A stretch of 64,000 nucleotides of DNA from Candidatus Latescibacterota bacterium (lineage in GTDB: Bacteria > Latescibacterota > UBA2968 > UBA8231): the NCBI GenBank assembly GCA_965203355.1, contig OZ241889.1, positions 2,752,001 through 2,816,000 on the forward strand. Direction: 5' to 3'. The notes under the pieces are model-generated. The model did no database searches. It was not told the DNA's origin and saw only the letters and a list, made by a program, of their open reading frames with translations. The position numbers were made by a program, and so were the translations under genes. Positions 47,236 to 63,265 of this stretch are shown piece by piece. Every line of letters begins with the position of its first letter. Within the stretch, counting starts at the first letter, position 1.

Positions 47236-48000
47236 ATGCCCACTTCAGCGATTGGCGCACAATTGTTCACCGTGCGCAATTATACCAAAACCCCGGATGA
47301 CATTCGCCAAACCTTTGCTAAGGTGCGAGCCCTCGGCTATGAGGCCGTGCAGGCCTCGGCCTTTGGATCGATCACGCCAGCCGAACTGGCCGCGATAAGC
47401 AAGGCCGAAGGAGTGCAGATCGCGGCTACGCACACCAGTTACCAGCGCATCTGCGACGAGCCACAAGCTGTCGTCGAGGAGCATCAGATGTGGGGGTGTC
47501 GCCACGTGGCCATTGGCGGCTTGCCCGAGGAATACCGCAACCGCGAAGGGTTTGTCCGCTTTGCCGCCGAGGCTTCGGCGGCCGCGGGTCCGCTCATTGA
47601 CGCGGGTTTGACCTTTAGCTACCACAACCACAGCTTCGAACTGGAGCGTTTCGCCGGATGCACCGGACTAGACATCCTCCGCCAAGAGAGCGACCCAGCC
47701 GTTTTTTCCTTTGAAATAGACACCTATTGGATTCAACACGGCGGCGGCAACCCAGTTTCGTGGTTGGACAAGTTCCGCGACCGCATGCACATCGTCCATC
47801 TCAAAGACCTGAGCATGGCGGGCTCCAAGCAGTGCTTCGCCGAAGTAGGGGAGGGGAACTTGGAATGGGAACCTATTCTCGCCGCCTGTAAAAGAGCCCA
47901 GATTGAATGGTACTTGGTCGAACAAGATACCTGCCCGGGCGACCCGTTTGATAGCTTGGGTCTGAGCCTGCGCAACCTGCGGGCCATGGGCTTGGATTAG
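47236..48000 (+). CDS. Sugar phosphate isomerase/epimerase (xylose-isomerase-like TIM barrel)
   Basis: QLFTVR, YHNHSFE, EIDTYW, HLKD, VGEG, VEQD. Confidence 0.9.
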   Translation: MPTSAIGAQLFTVRNYTKTPDDIRQTFAKVRALGYEAVQASAFGSITPAELAAISKAEGVQIAATHTSYQRICDEPQAVVEEHQMWGCRHVAIGGLPEEYRNREGFVRFAAEASAAAGPLIDAGLTFSYHNHSFELERFAGCTGLDILRQESDPAVFSFEIDTYWIQHGGGNPVSWLDKFRDRMHIVHLKDLSMAGSKQCFAEVGEGNLEWEPILAACKRAQIEWYLVEQDTCPGDPFDSLGLSLRNLRAMGLD

Positions 48001-48010
48001 GAGGAAAGTC

Positions 48011-49192
48011 ATGCAGGAAATTTTCGTCCCGTGGGCCGCTTGGTACGGCAAGGACCCGTTCAAAATGGAATTTCCCGAGCACTGGGACGTGGCGGTGCAT
48101 CCCCTGCGGGGTGGGCCGGACATCGGCGACGCTGGCATTCGCCGGGCACTGCAAGAAGCCATTGGTGCCCCGCCCCTGCGCGAATTCGCCCGCGGCCGGT
48201 CTTCGGCGGCCATCCTGGTCGACGATCTCTCACGCCCCACGCCGGCTTTTCGGCTCTTGCCCTATGTCCTGGAGGAATTGGCGGCGGCCGGGATCCGGGC
48301 CGATGCCGTAAAGATCATCTGCGCGCTGGCCGCCCACCGCCCGATGACGCGCGACGATTTGGTCAAGAAGGTCGGATTGGACATCGTCGATACCATGCAG
48401 GTGCTCAACCACAATGCCTATGAGAACTTGGAATTCCTCGGTTATTCCAGCCGCGGGATTCCGATTTGGGTCAACCGCGATATGACCTCTTGCGAGGTCC
48501 GCATCGCCTTGGGCATGATCACGCCGCGTGGGGGGATGTTTGGCGGCGGAGCCAAATTGCTCATCCCCGGTGCTTGTGGGCAGCAGACCATTTTGCTCAA
48601 CCACCGCCACGTGCGCGAAAATTTTCGCGCCCATCTGTCCGAAGTGGCGAAAATGGCCGGGGTCGCGTATATCGTCAATCCGCTGCTCAACGCGGACTTG
48701 CAGATTACCGGCTTGGTCGCTGGGGACGTGGACGCGGCCTTTGCGCGGGGCTGTGAGTTGGGGCGCGAGCAGTACGCTACTCAAGTTCCCGATGCTTTCG
48801 ACATTGGCGTGTTCAACGCCTTCCCCAAGGATACGGAACTGTGCCAAGCCGGGTTGGCGATGACGCCGTTGAGCGGCACCCAGAAAAATCCCTTCAACGA
48901 AAACTCGACTACTGTCCTGTGCTCGGCTAGCCCGGAGGGGCTGGGCTGGCACTCGGTGTTGGGGCCAGGTACCGCCCTGAGAGGAAAGGCCGGGCCGCCT
49001 GCCCGGCGCACCATTCTATTTTCGCCTGGGGTCAATAAGTGGGATGCGGCTTCGCTTTTTGGCGAGGGGGTTATTTTTTGTAAAACTTGGGCGGCCGTAT
49101 TGAGCGAATTAGAAAAATACCACGGGGCCAGCGCAAAAGTTTCGGTCTTTCCGGCTGGCGTGCTACAACGGGCGGCCGACGCCAACTACTAA
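48011..49192 (+). CDS. LarA-family (nickel-pincer) 2-hydroxyacid racemase/epimerase homologue
   Basis: DDLSRPTP, AHRPM, NHN, GGGAKLLIPG, NH, CSASPEG. Confidence 0.8.
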   Translation: MQEIFVPWAAWYGKDPFKMEFPEHWDVAVHPLRGGPDIGDAGIRRALQEAIGAPPLREFARGRSSAAILVDDLSRPTPAFRLLPYVLEELAAAGIRADAVKIICALAAHRPMTRDDLVKKVGLDIVDTMQVLNHNAYENLEFLGYSSRGIPIWVNRDMTSCEVRIALGMITPRGGMFGGGAKLLIPGACGQQTILLNHRHVRENFRAHLSEVAKMAGVAYIVNPLLNADLQITGLVAGDVDAAFARGCELGREQYATQVPDAFDIGVFNAFPKDTELCQAGLAMTPLSGTQKNPFNENSTTVLCSASPEGLGWHSVLGPGTALRGKAGPPARRTILFSPGVNKWDAASLFGEGVIFCKTWAAVLSELEKYHGASAKVSVFPAGVLQRAADANY

Positions 49193-49203
49193 AGAGGAAA
49201 AAG

Positions 49204-49980
49204 ATGCCACCGCTCGTGCGTTTTGGTCTAGAGGGCAAAATTGTCCTTGTAACTGGGGCTGGCCGGGGGATTGGCCGGACGATTGCTTTAGAATGCGCCC
49301 AGTCCGGGGCAAACGTCGCCGTTGGCAGCCGCACCCCGGCCGAGCTGGAAACGCTGGCTGCGGAGATTGAGGCCACCGGCCGGGCGTGTTTCTACCACCA
49401 CCTCGACGTGACGGACGTACGCTCTATCGAGCGTTTTATGGCGGCGGTAGTAGCGCACTGCGGGCGGATTGACGTGCTGATCAACAACGCCGGCTACAAC
49501 AAGGTCGGCAAAATCCTCGACTACGACGAAGCGCTTTACGACTTGATCGTCGATGCCAACCTGAAGAATGTGTTTTTTTGTAGCCAGATTGCCGCGCGGC
49601 AGATGATCGCCCAAGGCGGGGGAGGCAATATCATCAATATCTCGTCTCAAGCTGGCGTAGTCGGCGCGCCCGAGCGCGGTCCTTATTCAGGTGCCAAAGC
49701 AGGCGTAAACAACCTAACGCGGACTATGGCCGCCGAATGGGCCGAATACCAGATACGGGTCAACGCGGTGGCCCCAACCGTGACCCGCTCGCCACTGGCC
49801 GAGACCGCCATGCGGGAAAGCCAAACCTTCGCCAATGCGGTGAAGACCAAGAATTTGCTGCGCGGTGCCTTGGCCGAACCAGAGGAAATGTCAGCACCGG
49901 TGATCTTTTTGGCGTCGGATGCCGCGTCGATGATCACCGGGCACACGCTGGTGGTGGATGGGGGATGGACCATCGTCTAG
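49204..49980 (+). CDS. Short-chain dehydrogenase/reductase
   Basis: TGAGRGIG, NNAG, ISS, YSGAK, VNAVAP, VDGG; GAGG RBS before ATG 49204. Confidence 0.93.
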   Translation: MPPLVRFGLEGKIVLVTGAGRGIGRTIALECAQSGANVAVGSRTPAELETLAAEIEATGRACFYHHLDVTDVRSIERFMAAVVAHCGRIDVLINNAGYNKVGKILDYDEALYDLIVDANLKNVFFCSQIAARQMIAQGGGGNIINISSQAGVVGAPERGPYSGAKAGVNNLTRTMAAEWAEYQIRVNAVAPTVTRSPLAETAMRESQTFANAVKTKNLLRGALAEPEEMSAPVIFLASDAASMITGHTLVVDGGWTIV

Positions 49981-50274
49981 CGATCCGGCGAAACGCCGCG
50001 GCCGACTGAGACTGGCTGATCGTCTATCGCTCGTCCGCTCAAGCACCGACCTCGCACCCGAAAAGCCCCGCCCCTTGTAGCCTGCCGCGTACTGCGGATC
50101 TTTCAGCCCTTCTTCCACAAATTCGCGGAGAGCCTTTGGACTCTAGGCCGCTCAACTGCGAGTGTGCGCGATACCAAAAGGGCTGTGGGGCGCGAAGTAG
50201 CGGCTTGGCGATCGGGAGAAAGTCGAGTTCCGCACCCCAGAAAAAGCCCCCAATGCCCAGGCCGTCAACTCGCG

Positions 50275-50303
50275 TTGTCCCAATCGGTTAAGCTGCTTAT
50301 TAT
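50275..50303 (+). promoter_or_regulatory. Promoter for the three-gene membrane operon
   Basis: TTGTCC-N17-TATTAT, then AAAGGGA RBS and TTG 50325. Confidence 0.6.
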
Positions 50304-50324
50304 AACACGCCAAAGGGACGCTAC

Positions 50325-52481
50325 TTGCTAAGACGCTTGCCGACTCACTACCTAGACCACCTTGCCGGGCGCGATCAGGCTCTGCTGGCCCCGCCCGGTA
50401 CCCAGCAGCTAACCATGCGTGCGTTTTGGGTGGGCGCGTTCCTCAGCTTTTTTCTCGCCATCGGTGCTCCATATGGCAACATGATCATCCGCGGCTCCTA
50501 TATGGCCTTGGACTTCAGTACGCCAGGGGCCATTTTTTTGTTTCTCGTCCTCATTGGGCTGCTCAATGTGCTGTTCAAGATCGCCGCTAGCCCGGCGGGC
50601 GCGGTGGTTTGGGCCTTGGTCTCGGGTGCGCTCTATGGCTTCTATTATGGCTGGGAGGCTCCGCTCGATCTCTTTGCCCCGGGTTTTTTCTTTGCCTCCT
50701 TCATCGTCGCCTCGTCCCTGCTCAATATGGTATTGGTCTTTTGTGGGCGGAGTTTGGTCCTCAACCGGGCCGAGCTGATTCTCGTGTACGTCATGCTGTT
50801 GATCGTCTCGGCTTTGTGTACGATGGGTTTGAGCGAACAAATCCTGCCGATGATCACGGCGGTGTTTTACTTTGCCTCGCCGGAAAATAAGTGGCAGGAA
50901 ATGCTCTTTCCCCATTTTTCGGCCCGAGAAGTCCTAGTCAACGACGGGAGCGATAACAAGACCTTTTACGAAGGGTTGGCACCGGGGGAAGCGATTCCCT
51001 ACGCAGCATGGGTAGAGCCTTTGTGCTGGTGGGCGGTCTTTCTCTTGGCACTATACCTGACCATGGTGTCGGTCGCGGTTATCATCCGCCGGCAGTGGAT
51101 GGAGCGCGAGCGATTGCCCTATCCGATCACGCAGGTGGGACTGGCGATGGTGCGGGGCGAGGAACGCGAGTTTAAGATCAATACCTTTTTTCGCCAGCCG
51201 ACCATGTGGGCCGGTTTTATGTTGCCGATTTTCTTTGGCAGCTTGAAGGCCCTGCATTTCTACAACCCGGCTTTTCCGGTTTTCGCGCTGACTTGGTGGA
51301 TACCCTTAGTGGGCAAGCAGACCTTGCAAATGACCGTCAGCTTCGCCATAGTCGGCTTTTCGTACTTCATCAATGCTAATATCGCGGCTGGCATCTGGTT
51401 CTTTCACCTTTTGGCCAAGTTTGAAAAGGAGTTCTTCGCGGTCGCTGGCGTGACGTCCGAGCAGAAGGTCACCTTTGGCGTGGCCGATTTTCCCCTGATG
51501 GCCTACCAAGGGGTTGGCGCCTTGCTGGCAATGGTTGTGGTTGGCTTGTGGGTGGGCCGGGAACACTTTGGCAATGTGTGCAAAAAGGCCCTCGGCTTGG
51601 CCCCAGCGGTGGAGGACGGGGATGAAATCATGTCCTATCGCTGGTCTTTTTTTGGCGCGTTGGGCGGGATTTTGGTCATGTCGTGTTGGCTGTGGATCAT
51701 GGGGACGCCGCTGTGGGTGGCGTTTGCTTTTGTCGTCTTGGCTTTGCTCATCTTCCTCGGTGTGACGCGAATCGTCGCCGAAGCCGGTCTAGCGGCCGTG
51801 CGCGCCCCGATGACGGCTCCAGACTTGGTAATTTTGGGGTTGGGGACCGACTTGGTGACGCGGGCTGGGGTGTGGAACTTGTCGTTGGCTTATATGTGGG
51901 GTGCGGACGTGCGGGTGTTCGTCCTGGCCACCTGCACCAACGCCCTCAAGCTAATTGAAGAGATGGAGCCGAGGCTGCGGCGGCTGGTGTTTTGGGCCAT
52001 TATCCTCGCGCTTTTCATTGGGGTCCTCGGTGCGTTTTGGATGATTTTCCATATGGCCTATCAGCACGGCGGTGTGAATCTCAATAGTTGGTTTTTTAAG
52101 GGCGCACCCGAAACCGCGTACAATAATGCGCTCCGCAATATAGAGCCGACGGGCATCCATTGGCCGGGGCTGGGGTTTTTGTCCGGCGGTGCCCTGGTGA
52201 TGGGGGCGATGATGTGGGCGCGGCAGCGCCTGCCGTGGTGGCCGGTGCATCCCATCGGCTTTCCCATTGGGGCCAATGGCTTGCTCAACTACGTGTGGTT
52301 TAGCGTGTTCTTGGCTTGGTTTATCAAGAAGCTGATCATGCGCTTTGGCGGGGTAGCCTTGTATCGCCGCAGTCAGATGTTCTTTTTGGGGCTGATCTGC
52401 GGGCAGGTTTCGTGTAATGGACTGTGGTTGGTCCTAGATTACTTCACCGGCAAAGTGGGGAATTCCATTTTTTGGGCATGA
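50325..52481 (+). CDS. Polytopic membrane protein, DUF6785/DUF6784 (OPT-like) family
   Basis: Many TM helices, RRQWMERERLPYPI, RIVAEAG, WWPVHPIG, KKLIMRFGG..LY; family recalled from motifs. Confidence 0.7.
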   Translation: MLRRLPTHYLDHLAGRDQALLAPPGTQQLTMRAFWVGAFLSFFLAIGAPYGNMIIRGSYMALDFSTPGAIFLFLVLIGLLNVLFKIAASPAGAVVWALVSGALYGFYYGWEAPLDLFAPGFFFASFIVASSLLNMVLVFCGRSLVLNRAELILVYVMLLIVSALCTMGLSEQILPMITAVFYFASPENKWQEMLFPHFSAREVLVNDGSDNKTFYEGLAPGEAIPYAAWVEPLCWWAVFLLALYLTMVSVAVIIRRQWMERERLPYPITQVGLAMVRGEEREFKINTFFRQPTMWAGFMLPIFFGSLKALHFYNPAFPVFALTWWIPLVGKQTLQMTVSFAIVGFSYFINANIAAGIWFFHLLAKFEKEFFAVAGVTSEQKVTFGVADFPLMAYQGVGALLAMVVVGLWVGREHFGNVCKKALGLAPAVEDGDEIMSYRWSFFGALGGILVMSCWLWIMGTPLWVAFAFVVLALLIFLGVTRIVAEAGLAAVRAPMTAPDLVILGLGTDLVTRAGVWNLSLAYMWGADVRVFVLATCTNALKLIEEMEPRLRRLVFWAIILALFIGVLGAFWMIFHMAYQHGGVNLNSWFFKGAPETAYNNALRNIEPTGIHWPGLGFLSGGALVMGAMMWARQRLPWWPVHPIGFPIGANGLLNYVWFSVFLAWFIKKLIMRFGGVALYRRSQMFFLGLICGQVSCNGLWLVLDYFTGKVGNSIFWA

Positions 52482-55400
52482 AGCACTCGGTTTACTGCAT
52501 CCTCGGCATGCTCGCGCTGGCCGCCGATAGCGGTTGGGCGCGCGAGGACGGTTTGCGCGAAACCGTTGCTTATCTGTCGTCGCTCGGCTCTCGGGTCAGC
52601 GGCTATCCTGGGGCCGCGGTCGCCGCAGAGTACGTTGAGCAGCGCCTGCGTGCGATCGGCTTGCCCGAGCTGACCCGCGAATCCTTTGAAGTCACTGTGC
52701 CCATCGACCAAGGCGGCGAACTGCTGCTCACCGAGAGCGGGGAGCGCTACGCCCTCTACGGCCTGTGGCCCAACTTGGTCCGCACCTCGACCTTGCCCGA
52801 GTACGAGGGCGAGATGATCTACGGCGGGGACGGCGAGTGGGAGGATTTCGCGGGCTTTGAACTCGCGGGCCGGGTGGTGCTGATGGAATTCAATAGCTGG
52901 AGCCGGTGGTTGCAGGCCGCTTCGCTGGGGGCGCGTGCCATCGTCTTCATCGCTCCGGAGGAGACCACGGCCAACCAAGCTATGACCAAGTATTCCACTG
53001 CGCCGTTGGACATCCCGCGCTTTTGGCTTGAAAGAGCGGCCGGATTACAACTCAAAGAGCGGCTGCGCCAACACCCGACTGCTGTGGTGCTCAAGGGGCG
53101 GATGGACTGGCAGCGCAAGCAGGCTTGGAATATCTGGGGCCGGCTTCCCGGCACCGACCCGGCGCTGGCCGACGAGACCATTGTCATCGAAAGCTACTAC
53201 GACGGCATGTCGGTGGTTCCGGCCTTGGCGCCGGCCGCCGAAGCGACCAGCGGCATGGCTGCGTTGCTGGCGTTGGCCGAGCACCTAGTGCGGCACCCGC
53301 CGCGCCGGCCGGTCGTGCTGGTGGCCACGGGCGCGCATTTCCAAGCCCAGCAGGGGATCGTCCACTTCCTCGAGCGCCACGCCCGCCGCCATCCCTACTA
53401 TGCCGAGCGGATGGCCGAGCCGCTCAAGCCCAAGCTCTTCATCTGCATTGACCTGACGAGTCAGTCCGACGGACTGGGAATTTGGAACAATACCGCTAGC
53501 TATGATCTCAAGCGATTCTTCGTGCCTTTTGGCCGGCGTTTTACGGCCTATGCCGAGGAGGAGTCCGCGCGGTTGGGGCTACAGCAGCAACGACCGCTGG
53601 CCAATGGGATTAGCCCGATTCGCGGCATGGACTGGTCGACCTTCGTGCCGGGTGGGGTCTCGGTCAGTGGGGTGCAGGCCCTGACCGCGGGGATTGTCTC
53701 GCTGTCGTTGGCGACCGTCAACGACGCCCGCTACATCGTCGATACCCCGCTCGATACGCCCGAGCGGATGAATATCGACAATGTGTCCCGCCAAAGCCGC
53801 CTGCTCAACGCCATGCTGTCGCGGGCCGTCAACGACGAGGAGCTGTTTGCCGATCTCGAAGATTTTGGCCCGGTGCTCAAGGACAAATTGCGCTCCCTGC
53901 GGGTCAAGGTCCGTTCGTTTCCGCGCCACAGCCAAGTGCCGGACCGGCCCATCGCCGACGCCCTCGTCGTAGTGAATCCTTGGTTCAAGTCGCACAAAGG
54001 CGTGCGCTGGGCGCAGTACCACCTCACGGACGACCAAGGCATCGCCGATATCGCTGGATTGCGCACCGGGGCCTATCCGGTGGTAGCCTATCAAGTCAAG
54101 TCGGAAACTGGGGCGATCGCGTTTGCGCCCGACCTTTCGGAACGGGCGCAAAAATTCAGTGGCGCGGTCGTGAACGGGTGGATGATCGACAGCAAAATTC
54201 GCTGGAATATCAACGAAAAGACCATCGTCGTCTTTCCCGCCATTTCGCGGCCCTTCTACAGCATGATTGACCCGCGCTATCTCCGGTCGTTCAAGGGGAT
54301 CAAGATCGTCGATCACAGCGGAGTGGCCCCCCGCCAGTTCGGACTGGCGCGGGGGATTGACGAAGGCGAGGCCGTCGGTGTGGTGTTCGGAGCGCAGGAC
54401 GCCGACGAGGACGACGGCATCAAAATGATCATCGACAACCGCCTACTCCTGCTCAATAGCGAGGGCGACGAAAACGAGACGCAGGCTCGAGGGCGGGGCT
54501 ACGCGCTCAGAGAGGACTCGCTCGTCCGCACCGGGATGTTGGCGGTCGAGGACATGTGGCAGCTTAATGAGGCGCGGCTGCGCACCCTGCGCGAACACGC
54601 CATTGAAAATCAACGCCTAGCCCGGCTACACCAGCGCGGCAAGGCCCTGATCGAAAAGGCGCGGCAGGCCGAAGAGACCAAGGATTGGGCGCGCTATGTC
54701 GAGCACGTCCGGGCCGCGCTAGGCGTGACGTCTCGCGCGTACCCCGAAGTGCTACAGACGCTCAACGACGTCATCAGAGGAATGGTGTTTTTTCTCGCCT
54801 TGGTCATCCCGACGGCCTTTCTGGGGGAGCGGTTGCTGTTTGCAGCAGCCGATATTCGCCGACAGCTAGCTGGGTTTGGGGTGTTGCTGCTGTTGATTTG
54901 GCTTGCCATCTCTCAGGTTCACCCGGCCTTTGCCATCGCCCATCCACTGGTGATTTTGCTGGCCTTTGCCATCATGGCGATGGCGGCGTTTGTCTTGGCC
55001 ATGATCAGCGCCCGCTTCAACCGCTATATGAAAGCCTATCAGGCGCGGGAGGCCCACGTCCACGAGACGGATATCAGCCGCGCCAGTGCCAGTTACGCGG
55101 CCTTCATGCTCGGTATTTCCAACATGCGGCGGCGCAAGCTGCGCACCGGGCTGACCTTGCTGACCTTGGTCCTGCTCACCTTTACCGTGCTCTCCTTCAC
55201 CTCGTTCAATACCCAAGTTCGCTACATGGCCTTTGCCATGGACCACGAGGGGACCTACGAAGGTGTGCTGATCCGCGACCGCAACTGGAATGTGCTGAAT
55301 CGCCCGACGCTCGACTACGCCCACTCGCACTTCGCTGCCGAGGGCGTGGTCGTGCCGCGCAACTGGTATGTCGCCTTTGACGACGAGCAGAAGAAGTACA

Positions 55401-56881
55401 TCGAGGTCTTCGGCGATACCGCGGTGGTGCGGGCGACCGGGATGCTGGGGCTGATGCCGGAAGAAGCGCGCGTCACTGGCATCGACCAAGCCCTGGTGGG
55501 CGGGCGTTTCTTTGCGAGCGAGGACGAGGCGTCCTGCCTGATGGCCGAGGGCATGGCCGAGGCGCTGGGCATTGGTCTGGCGGAGTTGGGCACGGCAACG
55601 GTGCGGGTGTTCGGCCGGGACTTGGTGGTGCGGGGCGTGTTCGATCCCGAGCGCTTTGAGGATATTCGCGATCTCGACGACGAGCCGCTGACGCCGGCAG
55701 ATTTCCAGCTGTCGAGTGCCCAAGCCCTCGGGCCGGTAGCTCAAGACAATATGAGCATCGCCCTAGAGGAAGCCGCGCTCGACATTCGTCCCTTCATCCA
55801 CCTAGAATCCGACAACGTGCTGGTCTTGCCCTATGGAACGCTACAGGAGGCCGGGGGCACGTTGCGCTCCGTGGCGGTGCGAATGGAGGATGGAGTGCGC
55901 GGGCAGGCCATGATCGAGGATTTTCTCCTGCGTCTGGCCATTACGCTTTTTGCTGGCCTGCAAGAACCGGGCGAATCCGCCATTAAGGTGTTTTCCTATA
56001 CCTCAATTGGGTTGACCGATGTCGAGGGCTTGGGGGCCTTGGTGATACCGATGTTTATCGCCGCGCTGATTGTGCTCAATGCAATGATGGGGGCCGTCTA
56101 TGAGCGCTTCCGCGAGATCGGCATTTATTCGTCGGTGGGATTAGCGCCGCTGCACATTGCCCTGCTTTTCGTGGCCGAGGCCTGTGTCTATGCGATTATT
56201 GGCGTTACCTTGGGCTATATCCTCGGCCAGAGTTTGGGCAAAGTGCTCATCGCACTGGACCTGCTACAGGGAATAAGCCTCAATTACTCGTCGATGGCGG
56301 CGATTGTCTCGTCGCTGATCGTGATGGCCGTGGTCTTGCTTTCGACTATCTATCCGGCCAGGGTAGCGGCCCGCACGGCCGTGCCCGATACGGTCCGGCG
56401 CTGGACGCCGCCGGATCCTGACGGAGACCGCTGGGAAATGGAATTTCCCTTTATGGTCAGCGAGGGGGAAGTGCGGGGCTTGTGCGGATTCTTAGCCAGT
56501 TATTTCAGTGCCTATAGCGAGGAGTCCATCGGCGACTTCTACGCCGAGAAGGTCCAGTTGGTCGAGGAAGCCGGCGCGCGCGGGCCGGAGTACGCGGTGC
56601 AGCTTTTGCTGTGGCTGGCGCCATTCGACATGGGGGTGAGCCAGTTCATGCAGCTCGAATTTTTGCCCACCGAAGTCAAATCAGTCTATACCGTAGAAAT
56701 CTACATTGAGCGGATCAGTGGGCAGGACACCTTCTGGCAGCGGGTCAACTACCGATTTATCAATGGGTTGCGGAAAGAGTTCCTGCTCTGGCACACCCTC
56801 GCCGCCGAGTCCAAGGCCCACCATCTCGGGGTCGCTGAGCAGCTATTGGCCGCGGCAGCCGAAGCCGAGCAAGTGGAATGA
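52478..56881 (+). CDS. Signal peptide + M28/PA pseudo-peptidase ectodomain + TM bundle + MacB/FtsX-like permease fusion
   Basis: ATGA overlap with the upstream stop; SRVSGYPG, PA-like segment, YYDG..PAAEATSG, NMRRRKLRTGLT, VYERFREIGIYSSVG..FVAEA. Confidence 0.8.
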   Translation: MKHSVYCILGMLALAADSGWAREDGLRETVAYLSSLGSRVSGYPGAAVAAEYVEQRLRAIGLPELTRESFEVTVPIDQGGELLLTESGERYALYGLWPNLVRTSTLPEYEGEMIYGGDGEWEDFAGFELAGRVVLMEFNSWSRWLQAASLGARAIVFIAPEETTANQAMTKYSTAPLDIPRFWLERAAGLQLKERLRQHPTAVVLKGRMDWQRKQAWNIWGRLPGTDPALADETIVIESYYDGMSVVPALAPAAEATSGMAALLALAEHLVRHPPRRPVVLVATGAHFQAQQGIVHFLERHARRHPYYAERMAEPLKPKLFICIDLTSQSDGLGIWNNTASYDLKRFFVPFGRRFTAYAEEESARLGLQQQRPLANGISPIRGMDWSTFVPGGVSVSGVQALTAGIVSLSLATVNDARYIVDTPLDTPERMNIDNVSRQSRLLNAMLSRAVNDEELFADLEDFGPVLKDKLRSLRVKVRSFPRHSQVPDRPIADALVVVNPWFKSHKGVRWAQYHLTDDQGIADIAGLRTGAYPVVAYQVKSETGAIAFAPDLSERAQKFSGAVVNGWMIDSKIRWNINEKTIVVFPAISRPFYSMIDPRYLRSFKGIKIVDHSGVAPRQFGLARGIDEGEAVGVVFGAQDADEDDGIKMIIDNRLLLLNSEGDENETQARGRGYALREDSLVRTGMLAVEDMWQLNEARLRTLREHAIENQRLARLHQRGKALIEKARQAEETKDWARYVEHVRAALGVTSRAYPEVLQTLNDVIRGMVFFLALVIPTAFLGERLLFAAADIRRQLAGFGVLLLLIWLAISQVHPAFAIAHPLVILLAFAIMAMAAFVLAMISARFNRYMKAYQAREAHVHETDISRASASYAAFMLGISNMRRRKLRTGLTLLTLVLLTFTVLSFTSFNTQVRYMAFAMDHEGTYEGVLIRDRNWNVLNRPTLDYAHSHFAAEGVVVPRNWYVAFDDEQKKYIEVFGDTAVVRATGMLGLMPEEARVTGIDQALVGGRFFASEDEASCLMAEGMAEALGIGLAELGTATVRVFGRDLVVRGVFDPERFEDIRDLDDEPLTPADFQLSSAQALGPVAQDNMSIALEEAALDIRPFIHLESDNVLVLPYGTLQEAGGTLRSVAVRMEDGVRGQAMIEDFLLRLAITLFAGLQEPGESAIKVFSYTSIGLTDVEGLGALVIPMFIAALIVLNAMMGAVYERFREIGIYSSVGLAPLHIALLFVAEACVYAIIGVTLGYILGQSLGKVLIALDLLQGISLNYSSMAAIVSSLIVMAVVLLSTIYPARVAARTAVPDTVRRWTPPDPDGDRWEMEFPFMVSEGEVRGLCGFLASYFSAYSEESIGDFYAEKVQLVEEAGARGPEYAVQLLLWLAPFDMGVSQFMQLEFLPTEVKSVYTVEIYIERISGQDTFWQRVNYRFINGLRKEFLLWHTLAAESKAHHLGVAEQLLAAAAEAEQVE

Positions 56882-59800
56882 TGGAAGCGTTTTTTCAGAG
56901 ACTGTCTGGGTCTTTGCAGCAGCTGTTTGGCCGCGAGCAAAAGCACAAGCGCCAGTGGGCCGAGGTCGATGAATACCGCGCTTTGCTCGAACCCCCCAAT
57001 CGCTTTGACGAAGGTTTTACGATCCGCACCATTATCGGCGTACTCTTCATCTCGCTGATTATGACCCCGGGCGAGATGTTCCTCGGGCTCTATACGGGAG
57101 GCAGCGTTGGCCCAGCAGCGCAATGGGTGACGGTGATCCTCTTTTTGGAAGTCGCCAAACGCTCGTTTACCTCGCTCAAGCGCCAAGAGATTTACCTGCT
57201 GGTGTACGTGGCCTCGGCCTTGGTCGCCCGCGAGGAAGGCGCGTTCCTCGATTTGCTTTGGCGTCAGTACTTCGTGCGTTCCGCCGAGGCTGAACAGTTT
57301 GGGATTTCGCGCATTTTGCCGTGGTGGTGGGTGCCCTCACCCGATTCGGAGGCCATTGCCGAGCGGACCTTTATCCACCGCGATTGGTTGGCGCCCATCC
57401 TGTTGTTGGTGATCGGGACGATCATGGGCCGCATCGCTTGGTTCACGTCCGGCTACATGCTCTTCCGGCTCACCTCCGACCGCGAGCAATTGCCCTTTCC
57501 GACCGCGCCGATGTCGGCGTTGAGCGCCATGGCACTGGCCGAGGATTCCGGGGCCGAGCAGGAGACGTGGAAGTGGCCGGTGTTCAGTATTGGTGCGGCC
57601 ATCGGTGCGTCATTCGGGGTCGTCTATGTAGGGATCCCGGTCATCACGGAACTTTGGGGTTCCAAAGTGACTATCTTGCCGATTCCTTTCTGGGATTTGA
57701 CCCCCTATTTCGGCAATATCATACAGGCTGCGCCGCTGGGGATCGCCACGAGTCTGGGGTCGGTGTTCGCGGGGTTGTTCATGCCCTTCTGGTCGGTGAT
57801 CGGCTCCTTTGCCGGCGTGATGCTGCACACGGCCATCAGCCCCTTTCTATATACGTGGGGCTATCTGCCGCGCTGGGAAGTCGGCATGGACACCATCCAA
57901 ACCTCCATCGTCACTGGAATCGACTTTTGGATAGCCTTTTCCATTGGCATTACCATCGCAGTTACCATCGTCAGTTTTTACCAGCTTTTTTCCACTGGCC
58001 GAGAAAAGCAGGCCGAATTGCGGGAGAAGCTCCAGATCCAAGGGGACGATCCGTCGAGGATGTGCAAGCACTCGGACTGCCTCCGCCCGGCCGAAGTGAG
58101 GGGATATTGCTTAAAACACCTCGGCCGCGGCGATTTTAACATGTGGATTTGCGCTTCGCTGTTTTGCGTAGCGGCGATTTATCCGATCGTCTTGGCCAAG
58201 ACCTTATTCCCCACTTTGGTCAGCACCGGCCTGTTGGTGCTTTTCGTGCTCATCGCCTTTGTCTATGCGCCGATCATGTCCTTTGTCAGCGCCCGGCTCG
58301 ACGGCTTGGTCGGGCGAGAGATTTCGATTCCCTATGTCAATGAGGCCATCCGCTTTATGACGGGCTTTCGCGGGGTTGAAATCTGGTTCGTGCCCTTTCC
58401 AGCCCGCAACTTCGGCGGCCACGCCGAGGGGTTTAGGATAGTAGAGTTGACCGGGATGAAGTTTACCAGCCTGCTCAAGGCCGAGCTCTTTATGTTGCCC
58501 ATCGTCTTTGGGGTGAGTCTGATGTACTGGACCTTTCTCTGGCGCTTGGCTCCCATCCCCTCGGAGAGCTACCCATACGCGCAAATCATGTGGCCGCGCC
58601 AGGCTTTTGACCAAGCACTCGTACTATCCAGTACGATGTACAACAAAATGTGGCACGCCGGCGAGGAGTTGGAAGGGGATATTGTGCCCCGCGGCCAAGT
58701 CGGGTGGAGCCCGAGCAATTTGCAGGACGGTCGTTGGTGGTACTGGCGGGTGAGTACCACCAGGGATTTAGCGGTGCCCGATCCGGTAAAGCGCACCTAT
58801 GGTCCTTGGTCGCAGACCGGCTACTTCTACACGGACTTCAGCGGCGGGGACGCACCACCGCCTCCGGAGGTCGCCCAAAGGATCGACGCTGCCGCGGGTA
58901 CGCCATCGGACCGCCCCCAGCTCCTGTGGCCGCCCAACGGCATGGCCCTTGCCACGCCCAATCCCAACTTCCGGGCGGCGGTCGAGCTAGCCCTAGGCGA
59001 TTCGGTTGACTTCTATTTTGAAGTAGATCTCCTGCCCAGCTTTGACGGCGAATTTTTGCAGCGCTCCTCGGATGTACCCTTGCTCTTTAAGGTCCTGTGG
59101 CATGACATGCGCTTTACGGGCAACCGCAAAGACGACGACGGCGACCGCAATGTCGCGGCTATAGTCGAGCGGGTGGAGCCGGAGGGGTTGGGCGATCAAC
59201 TCGGACTGGTGGAAGGCGACCGGCTCCGCGTGGTAAACGGCGTCGAACTCCGCGTCCCGCAATGGGATGCTGAGCGGATCGATCGGTATTTTACCCAAGG
59301 AGCGGACTCGGTGTTTGTCGCTTGGGCACGGGATGAGCAGACCATGCGTCGAGCGGTGGTGCGCCGACCGGGGGAAGCACTGGGGCTTGAGTTTGCAGCG
59401 GACACGTCATTCGTCGAGCGTTGGACCGAATACGACGCGGTGCGCGTCGCGGCCGTAGCCGAAGCCGGGCTAGGCCACCGTTTGGGCTTGCAAGCTGGCG
59501 ACCATCTTATGGCGATCAACGGCCAAAGCATTGAGCAGGATACGTGGCGCAGCGAGGAGGTAAGGGCCGCCTTTTCCGCGGTCGTGGAAGAGACCGCGAC
59601 CACCGTGCTAGTCGAGTGGGAACGGGATGGAGACCGGCTTCGAGGTTGGGTGGCCGATGCGTCGTCTCGCCCGCTAGGCCTGACCTATCGGGCCGGGGCC
59701 ATCGAGGGCATTGACGAAGAGCTGGTCAACAACCGCGACGACGATGGCGACGGCCTGATCGACGAGGATACGCACCATCCCCTCGGCGGTAAGAAGTGGC

Positions 59801-60105
59801 CCATCATCATGGGCGCGGCGGGCTTCGGCTTGGCCGCGTACTTTGCCATGGCCTTTTTGGGAATGCCGATCTTTATGATCTTTGGCTACGTCCAAAGCGT
59901 CAACGGCATTCCGCATTTTCTCATTCCGCAAATCATTGGTGCCCTGATCGCCAGACATTACTTCTGGAAGCGGTACGGCAAGCAGCAATGGCGGCAATAC
60001 GCCATGGTCTTGAGCGTGGGCTTCGGGGTTGGCATGTCGCTGATCGGCATGTTCAGCGCAGCCTTGTTGATGATTAAAAAAGCCGTTTCTTCCCTCGCCT
60101 ATTGA
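56878..60105 (+). CDS. OPT-like (oligopeptide transporter superfamily) membrane protein with inserted zinc finger, FN3-like, Ca-binding-repeat and PDZ domains
   Basis: ATGA overlap; GFTIRT, EQLPFPTAP, APIPSESYPYA, GFGVG; large hydrophilic insert at about 58650-59790. Confidence 0.75.
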   Translation: MMEAFFQRLSGSLQQLFGREQKHKRQWAEVDEYRALLEPPNRFDEGFTIRTIIGVLFISLIMTPGEMFLGLYTGGSVGPAAQWVTVILFLEVAKRSFTSLKRQEIYLLVYVASALVAREEGAFLDLLWRQYFVRSAEAEQFGISRILPWWWVPSPDSEAIAERTFIHRDWLAPILLLVIGTIMGRIAWFTSGYMLFRLTSDREQLPFPTAPMSALSAMALAEDSGAEQETWKWPVFSIGAAIGASFGVVYVGIPVITELWGSKVTILPIPFWDLTPYFGNIIQAAPLGIATSLGSVFAGLFMPFWSVIGSFAGVMLHTAISPFLYTWGYLPRWEVGMDTIQTSIVTGIDFWIAFSIGITIAVTIVSFYQLFSTGREKQAELREKLQIQGDDPSRMCKHSDCLRPAEVRGYCLKHLGRGDFNMWICASLFCVAAIYPIVLAKTLFPTLVSTGLLVLFVLIAFVYAPIMSFVSARLDGLVGREISIPYVNEAIRFMTGFRGVEIWFVPFPARNFGGHAEGFRIVELTGMKFTSLLKAELFMLPIVFGVSLMYWTFLWRLAPIPSESYPYAQIMWPRQAFDQALVLSSTMYNKMWHAGEELEGDIVPRGQVGWSPSNLQDGRWWYWRVSTTRDLAVPDPVKRTYGPWSQTGYFYTDFSGGDAPPPPEVAQRIDAAAGTPSDRPQLLWPPNGMALATPNPNFRAAVELALGDSVDFYFEVDLLPSFDGEFLQRSSDVPLLFKVLWHDMRFTGNRKDDDGDRNVAAIVERVEPEGLGDQLGLVEGDRLRVVNGVELRVPQWDAERIDRYFTQGADSVFVAWARDEQTMRRAVVRRPGEALGLEFAADTSFVERWTEYDAVRVAAVAEAGLGHRLGLQAGDHLMAINGQSIEQDTWRSEEVRAAFSAVVEETATTVLVEWERDGDRLRGWVADASSRPLGLTYRAGAIEGIDEELVNNRDDDGDGLIDEDTHHPLGGKKWPIIMGAAGFGLAAYFAMAFLGMPIFMIFGYVQSVNGIPHFLIPQIIGALIARHYFWKRYGKQQWRQYAMVLSVGFGVGMSLIGMFSAALLMIKKAVSSLAY

Positions 60106-60472: not shown

Positions 60473-60865
60473 ATGGCAGATTTTACCACCGTAAAGGAGT
60501 ACGCCCTCGATCTTGGCTTGGCCATCGCCGAGGAAATACCCGACGAGGAAATCATCATCGTCAACGCCGAGGAACGGGGAGTGCAAAACTTAGTTATTGA
60601 TTGCGAAGATACGGTGCTCGTAATGGAGCAGCTTATCATCGAGATCGCTGCTGAAACCGCCGAGACCTACAAGCGGATCTTGCAGATGAACCGCGACTTG
60701 GTCTTTGGCGCCTTCGTCCTCAACGAGGCCGGCGATTCGCTGCTCTATCGCAATACGCTGGCACTGGAGAATTTGGACTTAAACGAACTCGAAAGCACGA
60801 TCAACTCCCTCGGGCTTGGCTTGGCCGAGCACGGGGAGGAATTACTGGGATTCGCCGCCCAATAA
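60473..60865 (+). CDS. YbjN/CesT-like (T3SS-chaperone fold) acidic protein
   Basis: LQMNRDLVFGAF, LENLDLNELE; GGAGG RBS; immediately upstream of pspA. Confidence 0.75.
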   Translation: MADFTTVKEYALDLGLAIAEEIPDEEIIIVNAEERGVQNLVIDCEDTVLVMEQLIIEIAAETAETYKRILQMNRDLVFGAFVLNEAGDSLLYRNTLALENLDLNELESTINSLGLGLAEHGEELLGFAAQ

Positions 60866-60877
60866 GGAGGATAGGAC

Positions 60878-61588
60878 ATGGCAGGTATATTTCAACGTTT
60901 GTTTAAAACGGGGCAGGCTGAAGCCCACGCCTTGGTGGATAAGCTCGAAGACCCGATCAAGATGAGCGAGCAAGCGATCCGCGACTTAAAAAAGGACTTG
61001 CAGGACAGTCTCAAAGCCCTCGCCGAGGTCAAGGCGATCGCCATCCGGCTCAGCCGCGAGTCCGAAGACCACCGGCGGCGCGCCGAAGACTACGAGCGCA
61101 AGACCATGCTGCTGTTGCAAAAGGCCGAATCCGGCCAGATGGACGAAGCCGAAGCCGACCGCTTGGCCCGCGAAGCCTTAACCCGCGTTGAGGAAGCCCA
61201 GAGCCGGCACGCAGAAACTTCCCAACAGGCCCAGGCCCAACAGGCGATGGCCAACAAGCTACAGAGCAATGTCAACGATCTGAAGTCGAAAATCGCTTCG
61301 TACGAAAACGATCTGATAACGCTCAAGGCGCGCACCAAAACCGCCAACGCCACCCGCAAGATCAACCAGCATTTGTCCAACATTGACTCAAAGGGGACTA
61401 CGGCCCTGCTCGAGCGGATGAAGGAAAAGGCCGAAGAGCAGGAAGCACTCGCCGAAGCCTATGGCGATATGGGGGATGCGGCGATAGCTATTGACGACGA
61501 GATCGACAAGGCCCTCGCCGACGGCAAAAAGGCCAAGGTCGATGATTCGCTGGCCCAGCTCAAGGCCAGAATGAAGGCGGCAAAATAA
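60878..61588 (+). CDS. pspA: PspA/IM30-family (bacterial ESCRT-III) protein
   Basis: Amphipathic MAGIFQRL, LEDPIKMSEQAIRDL, long coiled coils, LAQLKARM. Confidence 0.92.
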   Translation: MAGIFQRLFKTGQAEAHALVDKLEDPIKMSEQAIRDLKKDLQDSLKALAEVKAIAIRLSRESEDHRRRAEDYERKTMLLLQKAESGQMDEAEADRLAREALTRVEEAQSRHAETSQQAQAQQAMANKLQSNVNDLKSKIASYENDLITLKARTKTANATRKINQHLSNIDSKGTTALLERMKEKAEEQEALAEAYGDMGDAAIAIDDEIDKALADGKKAKVDDSLAQLKARMKAAK

Positions 61589-61612
61589 GGGCTGCCGCCC
61601 GTGGCGCGTGGG

Positions 61613-63265
61613 ATGAAGATCCTTAGCCGCCGGCAATTTTTCGGTGCGCTCGCCGCGGCTGGTAGCTGGGCCGCTTGGAGCGGTTGCTCTTCCGATCCCC
61701 ACCAGCGGACGGTCCCCGGGCGGATCGTCAACGAGGGACCGCCGCGTGGGCACCTGCTGCGCGATGTGCATTCTTGGGCGGATTTTGCCGCGGCAGACCA
61801 CGCCTGCGATGTCGCCATTGTCGGCGGGGGGATCTCTGGCTTGTCGGCGGCTTGGAAATTGCGTCGGTCCGGGATAGAGCGCATCCTCCTGCTCGATCTC
61901 GAAGACCAGCTAGGGGGCACTAGTCGCAGTGGCCAATGGGGCGACCGGGTGTTTCCTTGGGGTGCTCACTACATCAACATCCCGCCTGCCGAAGCCGACT
62001 GCATCCACGAAATACTGCGCGATCTAGGCGTCATCGACGGCTACGACGCGGCGAATAAGCCGATGGTTGCCGCTGGAGCAATGCTGCGCTGGCCGCACGA
62101 GCGGCTCTTTTACCGGGGTCGCTGGGTCGCCGAGCTGGACCCATTTGTCGACGCATCGGGCCGAGCGCGCGAAGCCTTGTTGCGCTTTGAAGACGAGATG
62201 CTGCGCTGGGCTTTACACCGCGGTCGGGACGGTCGCCGGGCCTTTGCCATGCCCTTGCGCTACAGCACGCGTGATGTCAAGGTGCGGCGCTTGGACCAAA
62301 TCAGCATGGCCCAGTACCTGCGCGAAGAAGGCTGGCACGACGACCGGCTTGGCTGGCTGGTCGACTATGCCTGTCGCGACGACTACGGCAGCACGGCAGC
62401 CCAAGTCTCGGCGTGGGCCGGGATTCACTACTATGCTTGTCGGTTCTACGACTACCGATTGCACGAAGCCTATCCAGCACACACGCTGACGTGGCCCGAG
62501 GGCAATGGGCACCTCGTTGCGAAACTCGCTAATAGGTTGGGGAAGAACGAGATAAAGCGACAGGCTATGGTGGCGCGTCTAGCCGAGGAGCGATCGCAGG
62601 TGCGGTTGGGATACATCGACTTGGCCACCGGAGAAAAGCGGCAATTGACCGCTCGGGCCGTGGTGTACGCCGGCAAGCTCCACACGGCTCCCTATGCGAT
62701 CGCGGGCCTGCCGGATGCCCAGGCTCAGGCTATGACAGCTATCGAATACAGCCCGTGGTTGGTGGCGGCGCTTTTTCTCAAAGCACCGCTCGCGGCCTCG
62801 CACACGACGTGGGACAACGTCTTGTACGACAGTCCGTCACTGGGATACGTGGTCGCGGACCACCAGCAGGGTACGGGAGGCCGCGTGTTGCTGTACTATT
62901 GGCCTTTTGTCGATCAACTCGCGGAAGCCCGGGAGGCTTTGCTCGCGCAAGACCATTCATTCTGGGCCGAACAGATCATGGCCGATTTGCGCCGAGTCCA
63001 CCCAGAACTCGACGACCTCGTCGAGCGCATTGACCTGTATCGCTGGGGGCACGGAATGATGCGGCCCAGTCCGGGGTCGCTATGGGGGCCGATGGCTGCT
63101 TGGCGGCAGCAGCCAATGGAGCGGATATTTTTTGCTTCGTGCGATGCGACGGGCCTGCCCTTATGCGAGGAAGCGATCTTTGCCGGTACGCTGGCGGCAG
63201 AGCAAGCCATGGACTGCCTCGGCGTGGCGTATTCTTCCTCGCTGGGGGGGCTTGCGGATGCCTAG
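61613..63265 (+). CDS. Tat-exported (lipo)protein, FAD-dependent amine oxidase family
   Basis: SRRQFF...WSGC, GGGISGL, WGAHY, YACRDDYG, SAWAGIHY, RWGHGM. Confidence 0.85.
   Translation: MKILSRRQFFGALAAAGSWAAWSGCSSDPHQRTVPGRIVNEGPPRGHLLRDVHSWADFAAADHACDVAIVGGGISGLSAAWKLRRSGIERILLLDLEDQLGGTSRSGQWGDRVFPWGAHYINIPPAEADCIHEILRDLGVIDGYDAANKPMVAAGAMLRWPHERLFYRGRWVAELDPFVDASGRAREALLRFEDEMLRWALHRGRDGRRAFAMPLRYSTRDVKVRRLDQISMAQYLREEGWHDDRLGWLVDYACRDDYGSTAAQVSAWAGIHYYACRFYDYRLHEAYPAHTLTWPEGNGHLVAKLANRLGKNEIKRQAMVARLAEERSQVRLGYIDLATGEKRQLTARAVVYAGKLHTAPYAIAGLPDAQAQAMTAIEYSPWLVAALFLKAPLAASHTTWDNVLYDSPSLGYVVADHQQGTGGRVLLYYWPFVDQLAEAREALLAQDHSFWAEQIMADLRRVHPELDDLVERIDLYRWGHGMMRPSPGSLWGPMAAWRQQPMERIFFASCDATGLPLCEEAIFAGTLAAEQAMDCLGVAYSSSLGGLADA

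Follow-up and report, generated by a model that had tools for sequence, protein, structure and literature searches.

What becomes of an aminopeptidase fold whose zinc ligands have been exchanged: does it decay, does it bind instead of cut, or does it work by a different chemistry? The question is raised by a gene on the + strand of a 64,000-nucleotide stretch of contig OZ241889.1 (assembly GCA_965203355.1, Candidatus Latescibacterota bacterium), the whole of which we refer to as the window. A first-pass annotation of this DNA had taken the span 52478..53830 for an M28-type ectodomain that has lost its zinc ligands and possibly acts as a receptor in the manner of nicastrin or the transferrin receptor. 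That span corresponds to residues 1-451 of an open reading frame which runs from an ATG at 52478 to 56881 and codes for one protein of 1467 residues, in which an M28/PA-like head is fused to a MacB/FtsX-type permease. The idea of a stand-alone receptor ectodomain had therefore to be given up, the head being part of a much larger fusion protein recognised both by Pfam FtsX and by profile matches in the PDB. A GTG 54 bases 5' of the ATG is a possible alternative start; homologues start at the ATG position.

Fold and catalytic centre of the head

The head has a genuine M28+PA aminopeptidase fold. Its M28-like core extends over residues ~22-470 (52541..53887) and holds a PA insert at residues ~116-200 (52823-53077). 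A single-sequence search of the PDB with the N-terminal 480 residues (phmmer) found the M28+PA aminopeptidase 2ek8 at E 2e-4; with a 79-row family profile the values were 6e-13 for 2ek8 and 9e-10 for BSAP (6hc6), and with a 26-row profile of diverse N-domains they were 8e-22 and 7e-21. Profile-profile comparison by hhalign of 121 family N-domains, those of the window protein and its 120 listed homologues, with three canonical M28 enzymes gave a probability of 98.7% (E 1.5e-15). The three enzymes are from G001, the 6.4-Mb genome of locus L001, in which the genome-level work was done and whose orthologue of the window protein is 90-92% identical.

Structure prediction gave the same answer. An AlphaFold2 (AF2) model of residues 1-770, built from 79 sequences, has a mean predicted local distance difference test score (pLDDT) of 91.9 and a predicted template modelling score (pTM) of 0.90, with low confidence at residues 16-21. 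For this model Foldseek returned 2ek8 at the top (E 7.5e-24), followed by PaAP, BSAP, the transferrin receptor and GCPII, and VIA-align placed the Aeromonas aminopeptidase AAP (1amp) first, with Z 28.0 and a root-mean-square deviation of 2.6 Å over 259 of 291 residues. BSAP reached Z 27.6 over 378 aligned residues, PA domain included, the glutaminyl cyclases ~25, the transferrin receptor 24.8 and GCPII 24.6. The PA insert is also matched, since BSAP aligns over 378 residues: 376-380 residues align to the insert-bearing BSAP and 2ek8 versus 259 to AAP, which has the same M28 core without the insert. The best matches are thus the bacterial PA-M28 aminopeptidases (2ek8, BSAP/YwaD 6hc6, PaAP 8acg), which share the fold and carry PA inserted in the M28 core, and the first-pass call of an M28 fold with a PA insert was borne out when the model was superposed on them and on GCPII.

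Pfam sees less of this. The PA match (residues 122-192) scores 21.4 bits, under the cut-off of 23.9, and Peptidase_M28 (PF04389) gives no match on residues 1-480 at E<=10, nor on the whole protein at E<=0.1; partial matches to the same family pass in some paralogues (L068, 27 bits vs a cut-off of 21.3) and are found in four of the seven giant paralogues of G001. The signal peptide of the first-pass annotation can be kept as a signal-peptide-like start (residues 1-21, 52478..52540), a short hydrophobic stretch recognised by eye, although a 19-residue hydropathy scan calls no transmembrane (TM) helix there.

In canonical M28 enzymes the metal ligands are His, Asp, Glu, Asp and His, and the general-base Glu stands directly before the ligand Glu; these motifs are visible in the sequences of the canonical M28 enzymes of G001. 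We mapped the catalytic positions by four alignments: HMMER to 2ek8 and BSAP, HMMER to the Aeromonas enzyme and its Glu151His mutant, HMMER to nicalin, and the hhalign comparison described above. The three substitutions that had been read from the sequence by eye all fall at the expected places. The first ligand His is Tyr240, in the motif Y240-Y241-D242 (53195..53203) that replaces the canonical H-x-D and keeps its Asp as Asp242 (alignments to 2ek8, BSAP, AAP and the G001 M28 enzymes). Position 255 (53240..53242), within the AAEATSG at 253-259 that stands for GAxDNxSG, has Glu for the metal-bridging Asp, which is a conservative change. In BSAP, 2ek8 and the canonical G001 enzyme L101, the residue opposite Glu255 is the Asp that opens the D-x-x-S-G motif, three positions ahead of its Ser, a register on which three alignments agree and from which the one to AAP is off by one residue. 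At the 'EE' motif, H287-F288 (53336..53341) replaces the pair, His287 taking the place of the general-base Glu and Phe288 that of the ligand Glu. The second ligand Asp, at the fourth ligand position, is retained as Asp325 (53450..53452); hhalign pairs it with the Asp of 'NFDM' in L101 and HMMER with the Asp of nicalin 'CLDTVG', and we take it to be Asp179 in the numbering of the Aeromonas enzyme. The last His is most likely replaced by Asp422 (53741..53743), where HMMER aligns the family's l-v-D-t-P-l-D-t to w-y-H-t-P-x-D of 2ek8 and BSAP, in low-scoring second stretches.

Where active M28 enzymes have the ligand and base set H/D/E-E/D/H, the window protein accordingly has Y/E/H-F/D/D; kept in common are the Asp of H-x-D, an A-P-x-A loop and, toward the C-terminus of the M28 core, a D-T motif. 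Three or four of the five ligand residues are changed and the catalytic Glu is replaced, so that these alignments predict that a canonical co-catalytic di-zinc site cannot form. The description of the zinc ligands as lost is right in that the canonical set has changed, and overstated in that two of the altered ligand positions carry other acidic residues, that Asp325 is kept, that Glu255, Asp325 and Asp422 are all acidic and that the pocket is nearly invariant.

The last point could be addressed with large samples. There are 472 homologues of ~1470 residues at E<=1e-3; among sequences that represent clusters at 50% identity, 2096 match at E<=1e-3 and 631 at E<=1e-30. In a close set of 121 sequences, the query and the best 120 of the 472 homologues, Asp242 and His287 are present in all 121, Glu255 and Asp325 in 120, Tyr240 and Phe288 in 119 and Tyr241 in 115, so that the YYD, Glu255 and HF substitutions are near-invariant among close homologues; position 422 has Asp in 81 and Asn in 34. 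A distant set comprised 151 of the cluster representatives, which share 33-60% identity with the query. Here Asp242 is kept in 147, Asp325 in 131 and Glu255 in 113, with Asp in a further 19; the column of position 287 is occupied in 143 proteins, 142 of which have His. Position 240 varies more (Tyr 115, His 12, Phe 9, Asn 5), as does 288 (Phe 82, Tyr 15, His 15, Gly 11, Cys 9). Glu was found at neither 287 nor 288 in any of the 272 family members of the two sets. An alignment of 26 rows with a mean column identity of 22% has only 10 invariant columns out of 480, and these include D242, S245, P248, H287 and G293 in the old active-site region and K171, P176 and P180 in the PA insert.

Since the replacement residues hardly vary among hundreds of relatives, the active-site pocket is, judged by its pattern of substitution, a redesign under purifying selection and not an abandoned site. 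The M28-FtsX head thus presents an old active-site pocket held under strong selection with a new set of residues, and the label of a catalytically 'dead' domain is unproven for it.

Membrane module and permease partners

Behind the head the model has one or more beta-rich periplasmic domains (residues ~471-680, 53888..54517), where paralogues give a weak match to CarboxypepD_reg (E 7.5e-4), and then three long helices which form a stalk toward the membrane (residues 685-767, 54530..54778; modelled as 685-706, 712-733 and 737-769). The hydropathy scan calls seven hydrophobic helices in the protein, and this count, which fits a head lying outside the cytoplasmic membrane, is the ground on which we place it there. 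Three of the helices (residues ~768-846, 54779..55015) are extra to the MacB/FtsX-type module (55115..56377), which consists of TM1 (888-910), a putative periplasmic core domain and TM2-4 (1185-1295). The module is recognised by Pfam FtsX with 46-48.6 bits against a cut-off of 25.5, and the family profile matches MacB (5gko, 3.8e-9), YtrF (8.9e-9) and LolC (6e-6) in the PDB; NCBIfam gives partial matches to MacB, LolC and FtsX, and Pfam MacB_PCD, at 24.1 bits, stays under its cut-off of 27. Between TM2 and TM3 lies an E-R-x-R-E-I-G segment in which E1209, R1210, I1214 and G1221 are invariant in 49 sequences; in known FtsX-type systems this segment contacts the ATPase. The protein ends in a cytoplasmic domain of ~160 residues (~1305-1467, 56390..56878) with many invariant columns, in which we found no Pfam match and no Walker motifs.

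The extra helices carry an invariant motif, Q-V-H-P-A-F-A-I-A-H-P: in the 49 sequences Q813, H815, P816, A817, F818, I820, A821 and P823 are invariant, and H822 is present in at least 90%. The motif sits at the outer end of the three helices and could be a contact to the OPT-fold partner described below, or a proton or metal site.

The gene is the middle one of three on the + strand across 50325-60105, which we read as one tightly coupled unit because an ATGA overlap is found at both junctions (stop of 50325..52481 with the start at 52478, and stop at 56881 with the start at 56878). The upstream gene (50325..52481) codes for a polytopic membrane protein of 718 residues that Pfam assigns to DUF6785 (E 4e-105) and DUF6784 (5.5e-29). 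On its predicted structure, this partner is a permease of the OPT/Yellow-Stripe fold. An AF2 model from 64 sequences has a pLDDT of 81 and a pTM of 0.84, and we make the assignment because the only Foldseek matches to it in the PDB at E<1e-3 are to barley YS1 (7wsr_A, 3.6e-6, TMt 0.59; 7wst_A, 1.3e-5, TMt 0.62). Template modelling (TM) scores against YS1 are 0.51-0.62, and the next matches lie at ~0.1. Pfam OPT (PF03169) gives no match on this protein at E<=10.

The downstream gene (56878..60105) codes for an OPT-family permease of 1075 residues with two PDZ-like inserts. Its last 200 residues match Pfam OPT directly (30.1 bits vs a cut-off of 25.8, E 2.7e-7), and PDZ_6 matches in two stretches (E 5.8e-12). 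OPT/Yellow-Stripe-like transporters (PF03169; HvYS1) thus correspond in fold to the upstream partner and at the level of Pfam to the C-terminal part of the downstream one. Profile-profile comparison of the two permease families gave a probability of 2.3% over a short R-E-R/Q-L-P-Y/F-P motif, which amounts to no relatedness at the level of sequence, and neither family profile found anything in the PDB at E<=1.

The partnership of the M28-FtsX gene with a DUF6785-family gene is without exception in our sample. For the neighbourhood counts we took the 80 loci with the highest similarity to the query and called reading frames ourselves; 61 loci, the window and 60 of the 80 fetched, have full flanks, and the locus records are metagenome-assembled genomes of Latescibacterota and Gemmatimonadota. 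In 61 of 61 the two genes are clustered or fused: 47 have the DUF6785-family gene immediately upstream, four have it immediately downstream and two further downstream, behind an OPT-type gene, and in the remaining eight it is fused in frame behind the FtsX part (L065, L068, L070, L073 and L077-L080, the fusions of L068 and L070 being confirmed by Pfam). In L035 the two are separate genes in the order M28-FtsX, DUF6785, and L059 has two DUF6785 genes upstream. Database proteins of 2105-2143 residues show the same M28-FtsX/DUF6785 fusion. The PDZ-bearing OPT gene is less constant, being present in 35 of the 61 loci. The system is widespread, given the 631 clusters at 50% identity and E<=1e-30 and the fact that 137 of the 150 genomes sampled from the phylum carry M28-FtsX genes, with as many as nine matches in a single genome. 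It links two classes of transporter that have no known cooperation, the MacB/FtsX-type mechanotransmission proteins and the OPT/Yellow-Stripe permeases. Our literature search found no description of an OPT transporter with an FtsX-type or peptidase-like accessory, and no paper on the M28-FtsX family, on DUF6785 or on a MacB/FtsX-OPT pairing, subscription-only papers lying outside the search.

Among the other neighbours, a gene for an M42 aminopeptidase lies divergently upstream in 29 of the 61 loci and is absent from the window; at the corresponding place the window has a 345-bp gap (49981-50324) between a short-chain dehydrogenase/reductase (SDR) gene and the DUF6785 gene, and its lineage appears to be without an M42 gene there. 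A gene for a TonB-dependent receptor stands beside eight paralogue loci of the 61, and genes for a haloacid dehalogenase (HAD) hydrolase and a sulfatase are also found beside paralogues.

Candidate motors and the role of the head

Given the FtsX-type module, we looked for the ATPase that would be expected to accompany it. A tblastn search with a LolD-type ATPase found nothing in the window at E<=1e-3. None of the 80 M28-FtsX loci has an adjoining ATPase at E<=1e-10; weak matches to ATP-binding cassette (ABC) ATPases (30-38% identity) occur only in L063 and L066, where the genes lie ~2.5-4 kb upstream. G001 encodes 11 ATPases of the LolD/MacB/FtsE type at 205 bits or more and has 28 FtsX matches, seven of which sit in giant frames of 1479-2143 residues. 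None of the 11 ATPase genes lies beside the seven giant paralogues, and ten are within ~4 kb of ordinary FtsX permeases. Seven M28-FtsX paralogues in one 6.4-Mb genome are a large expansion for a membrane protein of ~1500 residues.

The eleventh ATPase gene is solitary (L081:6086-6832), placed between uvrB, which precedes it, and a VIT/VWA gene on the opposite strand, and its product has Walker A and B, Q-loop, signature and H-loop intact. Orthologues are found in five of five other genomes at 86-98% identity, where the M28-FtsX heads are 51-88% identical. The flanks of these orthologues contain no recognised permease; there are frames with no Pfam match, two beside L086 and one beside L085. 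Among the 150 sampled genomes, 60 have a copy of this ATPase at 82% identity or more, and all 60 carry M28-FtsX genes, the 77 other M28-FtsX-positive genomes having ATPase copies of at most 61% identity. This co-occurrence is a lead and not a test of correlation, as kinship is ignored and the 13 negative genomes may be one clade. In G079 a cluster made up of DUF6785, a distant M28-FtsX paralogue and a gene for an 805-residue protein is preceded, ~1 kb away and in the same orientation, by the gene for an ATPase 60% identical to the solitary one. In an ATPase tree (20 rows, of which two are disregarded) this cis copy groups with the solitary copy of G034 with support of 97/97, and the tree leaves the solitary/cis group, the oNBD group (86/78) and the FtsX-paired group as a trichotomy. 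A predicted complex of the solitary ATPase with the FtsX module of the G001 orthologue (850-1467) scored 0.22 and 0.26 against a mark of 0.32. The solitary, trans-encoded LolD-type ATPase is a plausible candidate for a motor shared by the seven ATPase-less paralogues of G001.

How these parts might work together can be considered against the type VII ABC systems (MacB, LolCDE, FtsEX-EnvC, YtrEF, YbbAP-TesA). They share with the window protein the FtsX domain, the TM2-TM3 loop and probably the periplasmic core domain, and likewise have a large outer domain working outside the membrane; FtsEX, for instance, uses EnvC, a partner with a degenerate peptidase fold. In contrast to them, the window protein has no fused or adjacent ATPase, and adds three helices, a novel cytoplasmic tail and an obligatory pairing with an OPT-fold permease. 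It departs equally from the active PA-M28 enzymes, which are secreted on their own, whereas its head is fused to a membrane part of seven helices. YbbAP is reported to carry a hydrolase, TesA (PMC12646458).

The reading we favour, tentatively and at slightly less than an even chance, is that the head is the substrate-capture head of a peptide-handling membrane complex with OPT-fold permeases. We propose a capture-and-delivery role because an outward head with a conserved pocket, an FtsX-type link to the membrane and an obligatory OPT-fold partnership occur together. The head would be carried on the beta domain and helical stalk, and joined through these to the three extra helices, the four-helix MacB/FtsX-type module and the novel cytoplasmic tail. 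In it the di-zinc centre would have been rebuilt into a conserved polar cluster of Tyr240, Asp242, Glu255, His287, Asp325 and Asp422, with Phe288 filling one ligand position. Such a head would no longer be a standard zinc aminopeptidase; its old active-site cleft would capture a periplasmic substrate and pass it on for import by the OPT-fold permeases. Most likely this substrate would be a free peptide end, whose positive and negative groups could meet the acidic cluster and those Lys and Arg residues that are invariant. The FtsX-type module might only anchor or dimerise the head, or might move it, possibly powered by a separate LolD-type ATPase. Binding in place of cleavage, a peptide as the substrate, inward transport and a drive by ATP are each put forward conditionally here, and a theme of peptides and uptake runs through the neighbours, with the PDZ inserts, the M42 gene in 29 of 61 loci and the TonB-dependent receptor gene at eight. 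If the head is a substrate receptor, a secondary transporter would here have a tethered binding domain.

Several observations weigh against this proposal. To our knowledge, none of the characterised MacB/FtsX-type systems serves import; all act outward or on the outer face. The structure that best matches the upstream partner carries an iron chelate and not a peptide, and neighbouring genes other than the permeases vary among loci. The equivalence of Asp422 is ambiguous, hhalign placing a four-residue gap there, and the spatial clustering of the replacement residues is deduced from their equivalence to M28 ligand positions and not from distances. Finally, three acidic residues with a His and a Tyr could bind metal, and hydrolysis could be possible, since His at the general-base position is the very change present in an Aeromonas mutant that its depositors call functional.

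This last point leads to the alternative of a head that is still a hydrolase, with a re-tooled mono- or di-metal site that would trim periplasmic peptides for import by the OPT-fold permeases; Glu255, Asp325, Asp422 and Tyr240 might then ligate a harder metal (Mn, Fe or Ca), with His287 as general base. The Aeromonas Glu151His change reportedly carries a kinetic cost. The entry for that mutant is titled 'Functional Glutamate 151 to Histidine mutant' (PDB 2anp), and our family profile matches it better than the wild type (1.3e-10 vs 2.4e-8), so that a His at the general-base position is in principle compatible with catalysis. Five of the six positions of the catalytic centre are ionisable or polar and nearly invariant, some paralogues (L068 and the four G001 giants) still pass Peptidase_M28, and YbbAP-TesA (PMC12646458) is a precedent for a hydrolase riding on a type VII ABC transporter. 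Yet neither metal site is complete, site 1 having exchanged Glu for Phe and His for probably Asp, and site 2 His for Tyr, and the want of Glu at either 'EE' position in all 272 family members also speaks against it. We consider a hydrolase somewhat unlikely; if the head were one, it would represent a new metal-site chemistry on the M28 scaffold. A regulatory pseudo-enzyme comparable to EnvC in FtsEX, carrying no substrate but switching on a periplasmic enzyme or gating the OPT-fold permease as movements of the FtsX-type module expose or hide it, would account for an altered metallopeptidase fold joined to an FtsX-type module and for the conserved TM2-TM3 segment. The nearest altered relative by sequence, nicalin, is a non-catalytic subunit of a membrane complex (PMC7505659). 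The 61 loci, however, offer no conserved candidate for a target enzyme, the M42 gene being found in just 29 of them, and strong conservation of the old pocket would argue for a small ligand over a protein-protein surface; such a role seems quite unlikely to us.

Sets of Tyr, His and carboxylates are typical of ferric-ion sites, and the system might instead handle metal chelates, the cluster of Tyr, Glu, two Asp and His receiving a metal-metallophore and passing it to a Yellow-Stripe-like permease. That the only solved structures to match the partner are those of the barley Fe(III)-phytosiderophore transporter, and that TonB-dependent receptor genes stand beside eight of the 61 loci, would suit such a system. 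But HvYS1 is the sole OPT-family structure that matches, so that the match speaks of fold and not of substrate; the PDZ inserts and the M42 neighbour point to peptides, and no genes for metallophore synthesis were seen in the window. We regard metal chelates as very unlikely. An elaboration of the capture proposal, which we think unlikely, combines both transporter classes in a hybrid uptake machine: a solitary, trans-encoded LolD-type ATPase would drive several ATPase-less MacB/FtsX-type proteins, whose motion, relayed by mechanotransmission, would open and close the rebuilt cleft and so load captured peptides or metal chelates into the OPT-fold permeases. If true, this would couple ATP-driven mechanical work to proton-driven import, an arrangement undescribed for either class of transporter.

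The proposed likeness of the head to nicastrin and the transferrin receptor can be retained in part. The M28 domain is altered, as it is in those proteins, and its nearest altered relative is nicalin (7tm3, 6w6l), a subunit of the BOS complex of the multipass translocon of the endoplasmic reticulum, in which an altered M28-like outer domain likewise belongs to a membrane complex. With the diverse profile nicalin is the third-best PDB family (E 6e-12, profile positions 236-550), the active bacterial enzymes standing at ~1e-21. In nicalin the first two positions are still His and Asp, and Gly-Lys stands at 'EE'; we regard the changes in the two families as independent since the substitutions are not the same. 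The transferrin receptor is matched by the profile on its N-terminal part only (1e-6), and its VIA score is below those of the bacterial aminopeptidases; nicastrin is not among the 50 best structural matches listed by VIA, which says nothing on a difference in fold. The membrane context is also different: nicalin, nicastrin and the transferrin receptor each sit in the membrane by a single anchor and work with eukaryotic partners, whereas the head described here is bacterial and sits on seven helices. It would be the third independent re-use of the M28 fold, after the line of the transferrin receptor, nicastrin and nicalin and after the glutaminyl cyclases.

Other features of the locus

The downstream permease has some peculiarities of its own. 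Around residues 394-418 (window 58060-58130) C396, H398, C401, C411 and H414 are invariant in 18 sequences, forming a Cys/His loop that resembles a small zinc-binding insert and gives a weak match to Zf_WRKY19 (E 0.075-0.15). The two PDZ-like units lie in an outer loop (window 59400-59800) in the window protein and its closest relatives, which are 1071-1075 residues long, and the same loop contains acidic repeats of the D-x-D-x-D-G type. Relatives of ~880-900 residues may be without the PDZ part.

On the 3' side of the three membrane genes, the region 60473-63265 holds a CesT/YbjN-like gene of 130 codons, a PspA/IM30 gene (60878-61588) and a flavin amine-oxidase-like gene (61601-63265), and this order is kept in 25-27 of the 61 loci; a membrane-stress module is kept beside the permease cluster. 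Upstream (47236-49980) are genes for a xylose-isomerase-like TIM-barrel protein, a homologue of LarA-like nickel-pincer racemases and the SDR protein, syntenic in 25-29 of the 61 loci. In both G079 and G034, the LolD-type ATPase gene is divergently adjoined by a TIM-barrel gene that shares its Pfam family with the one just named.

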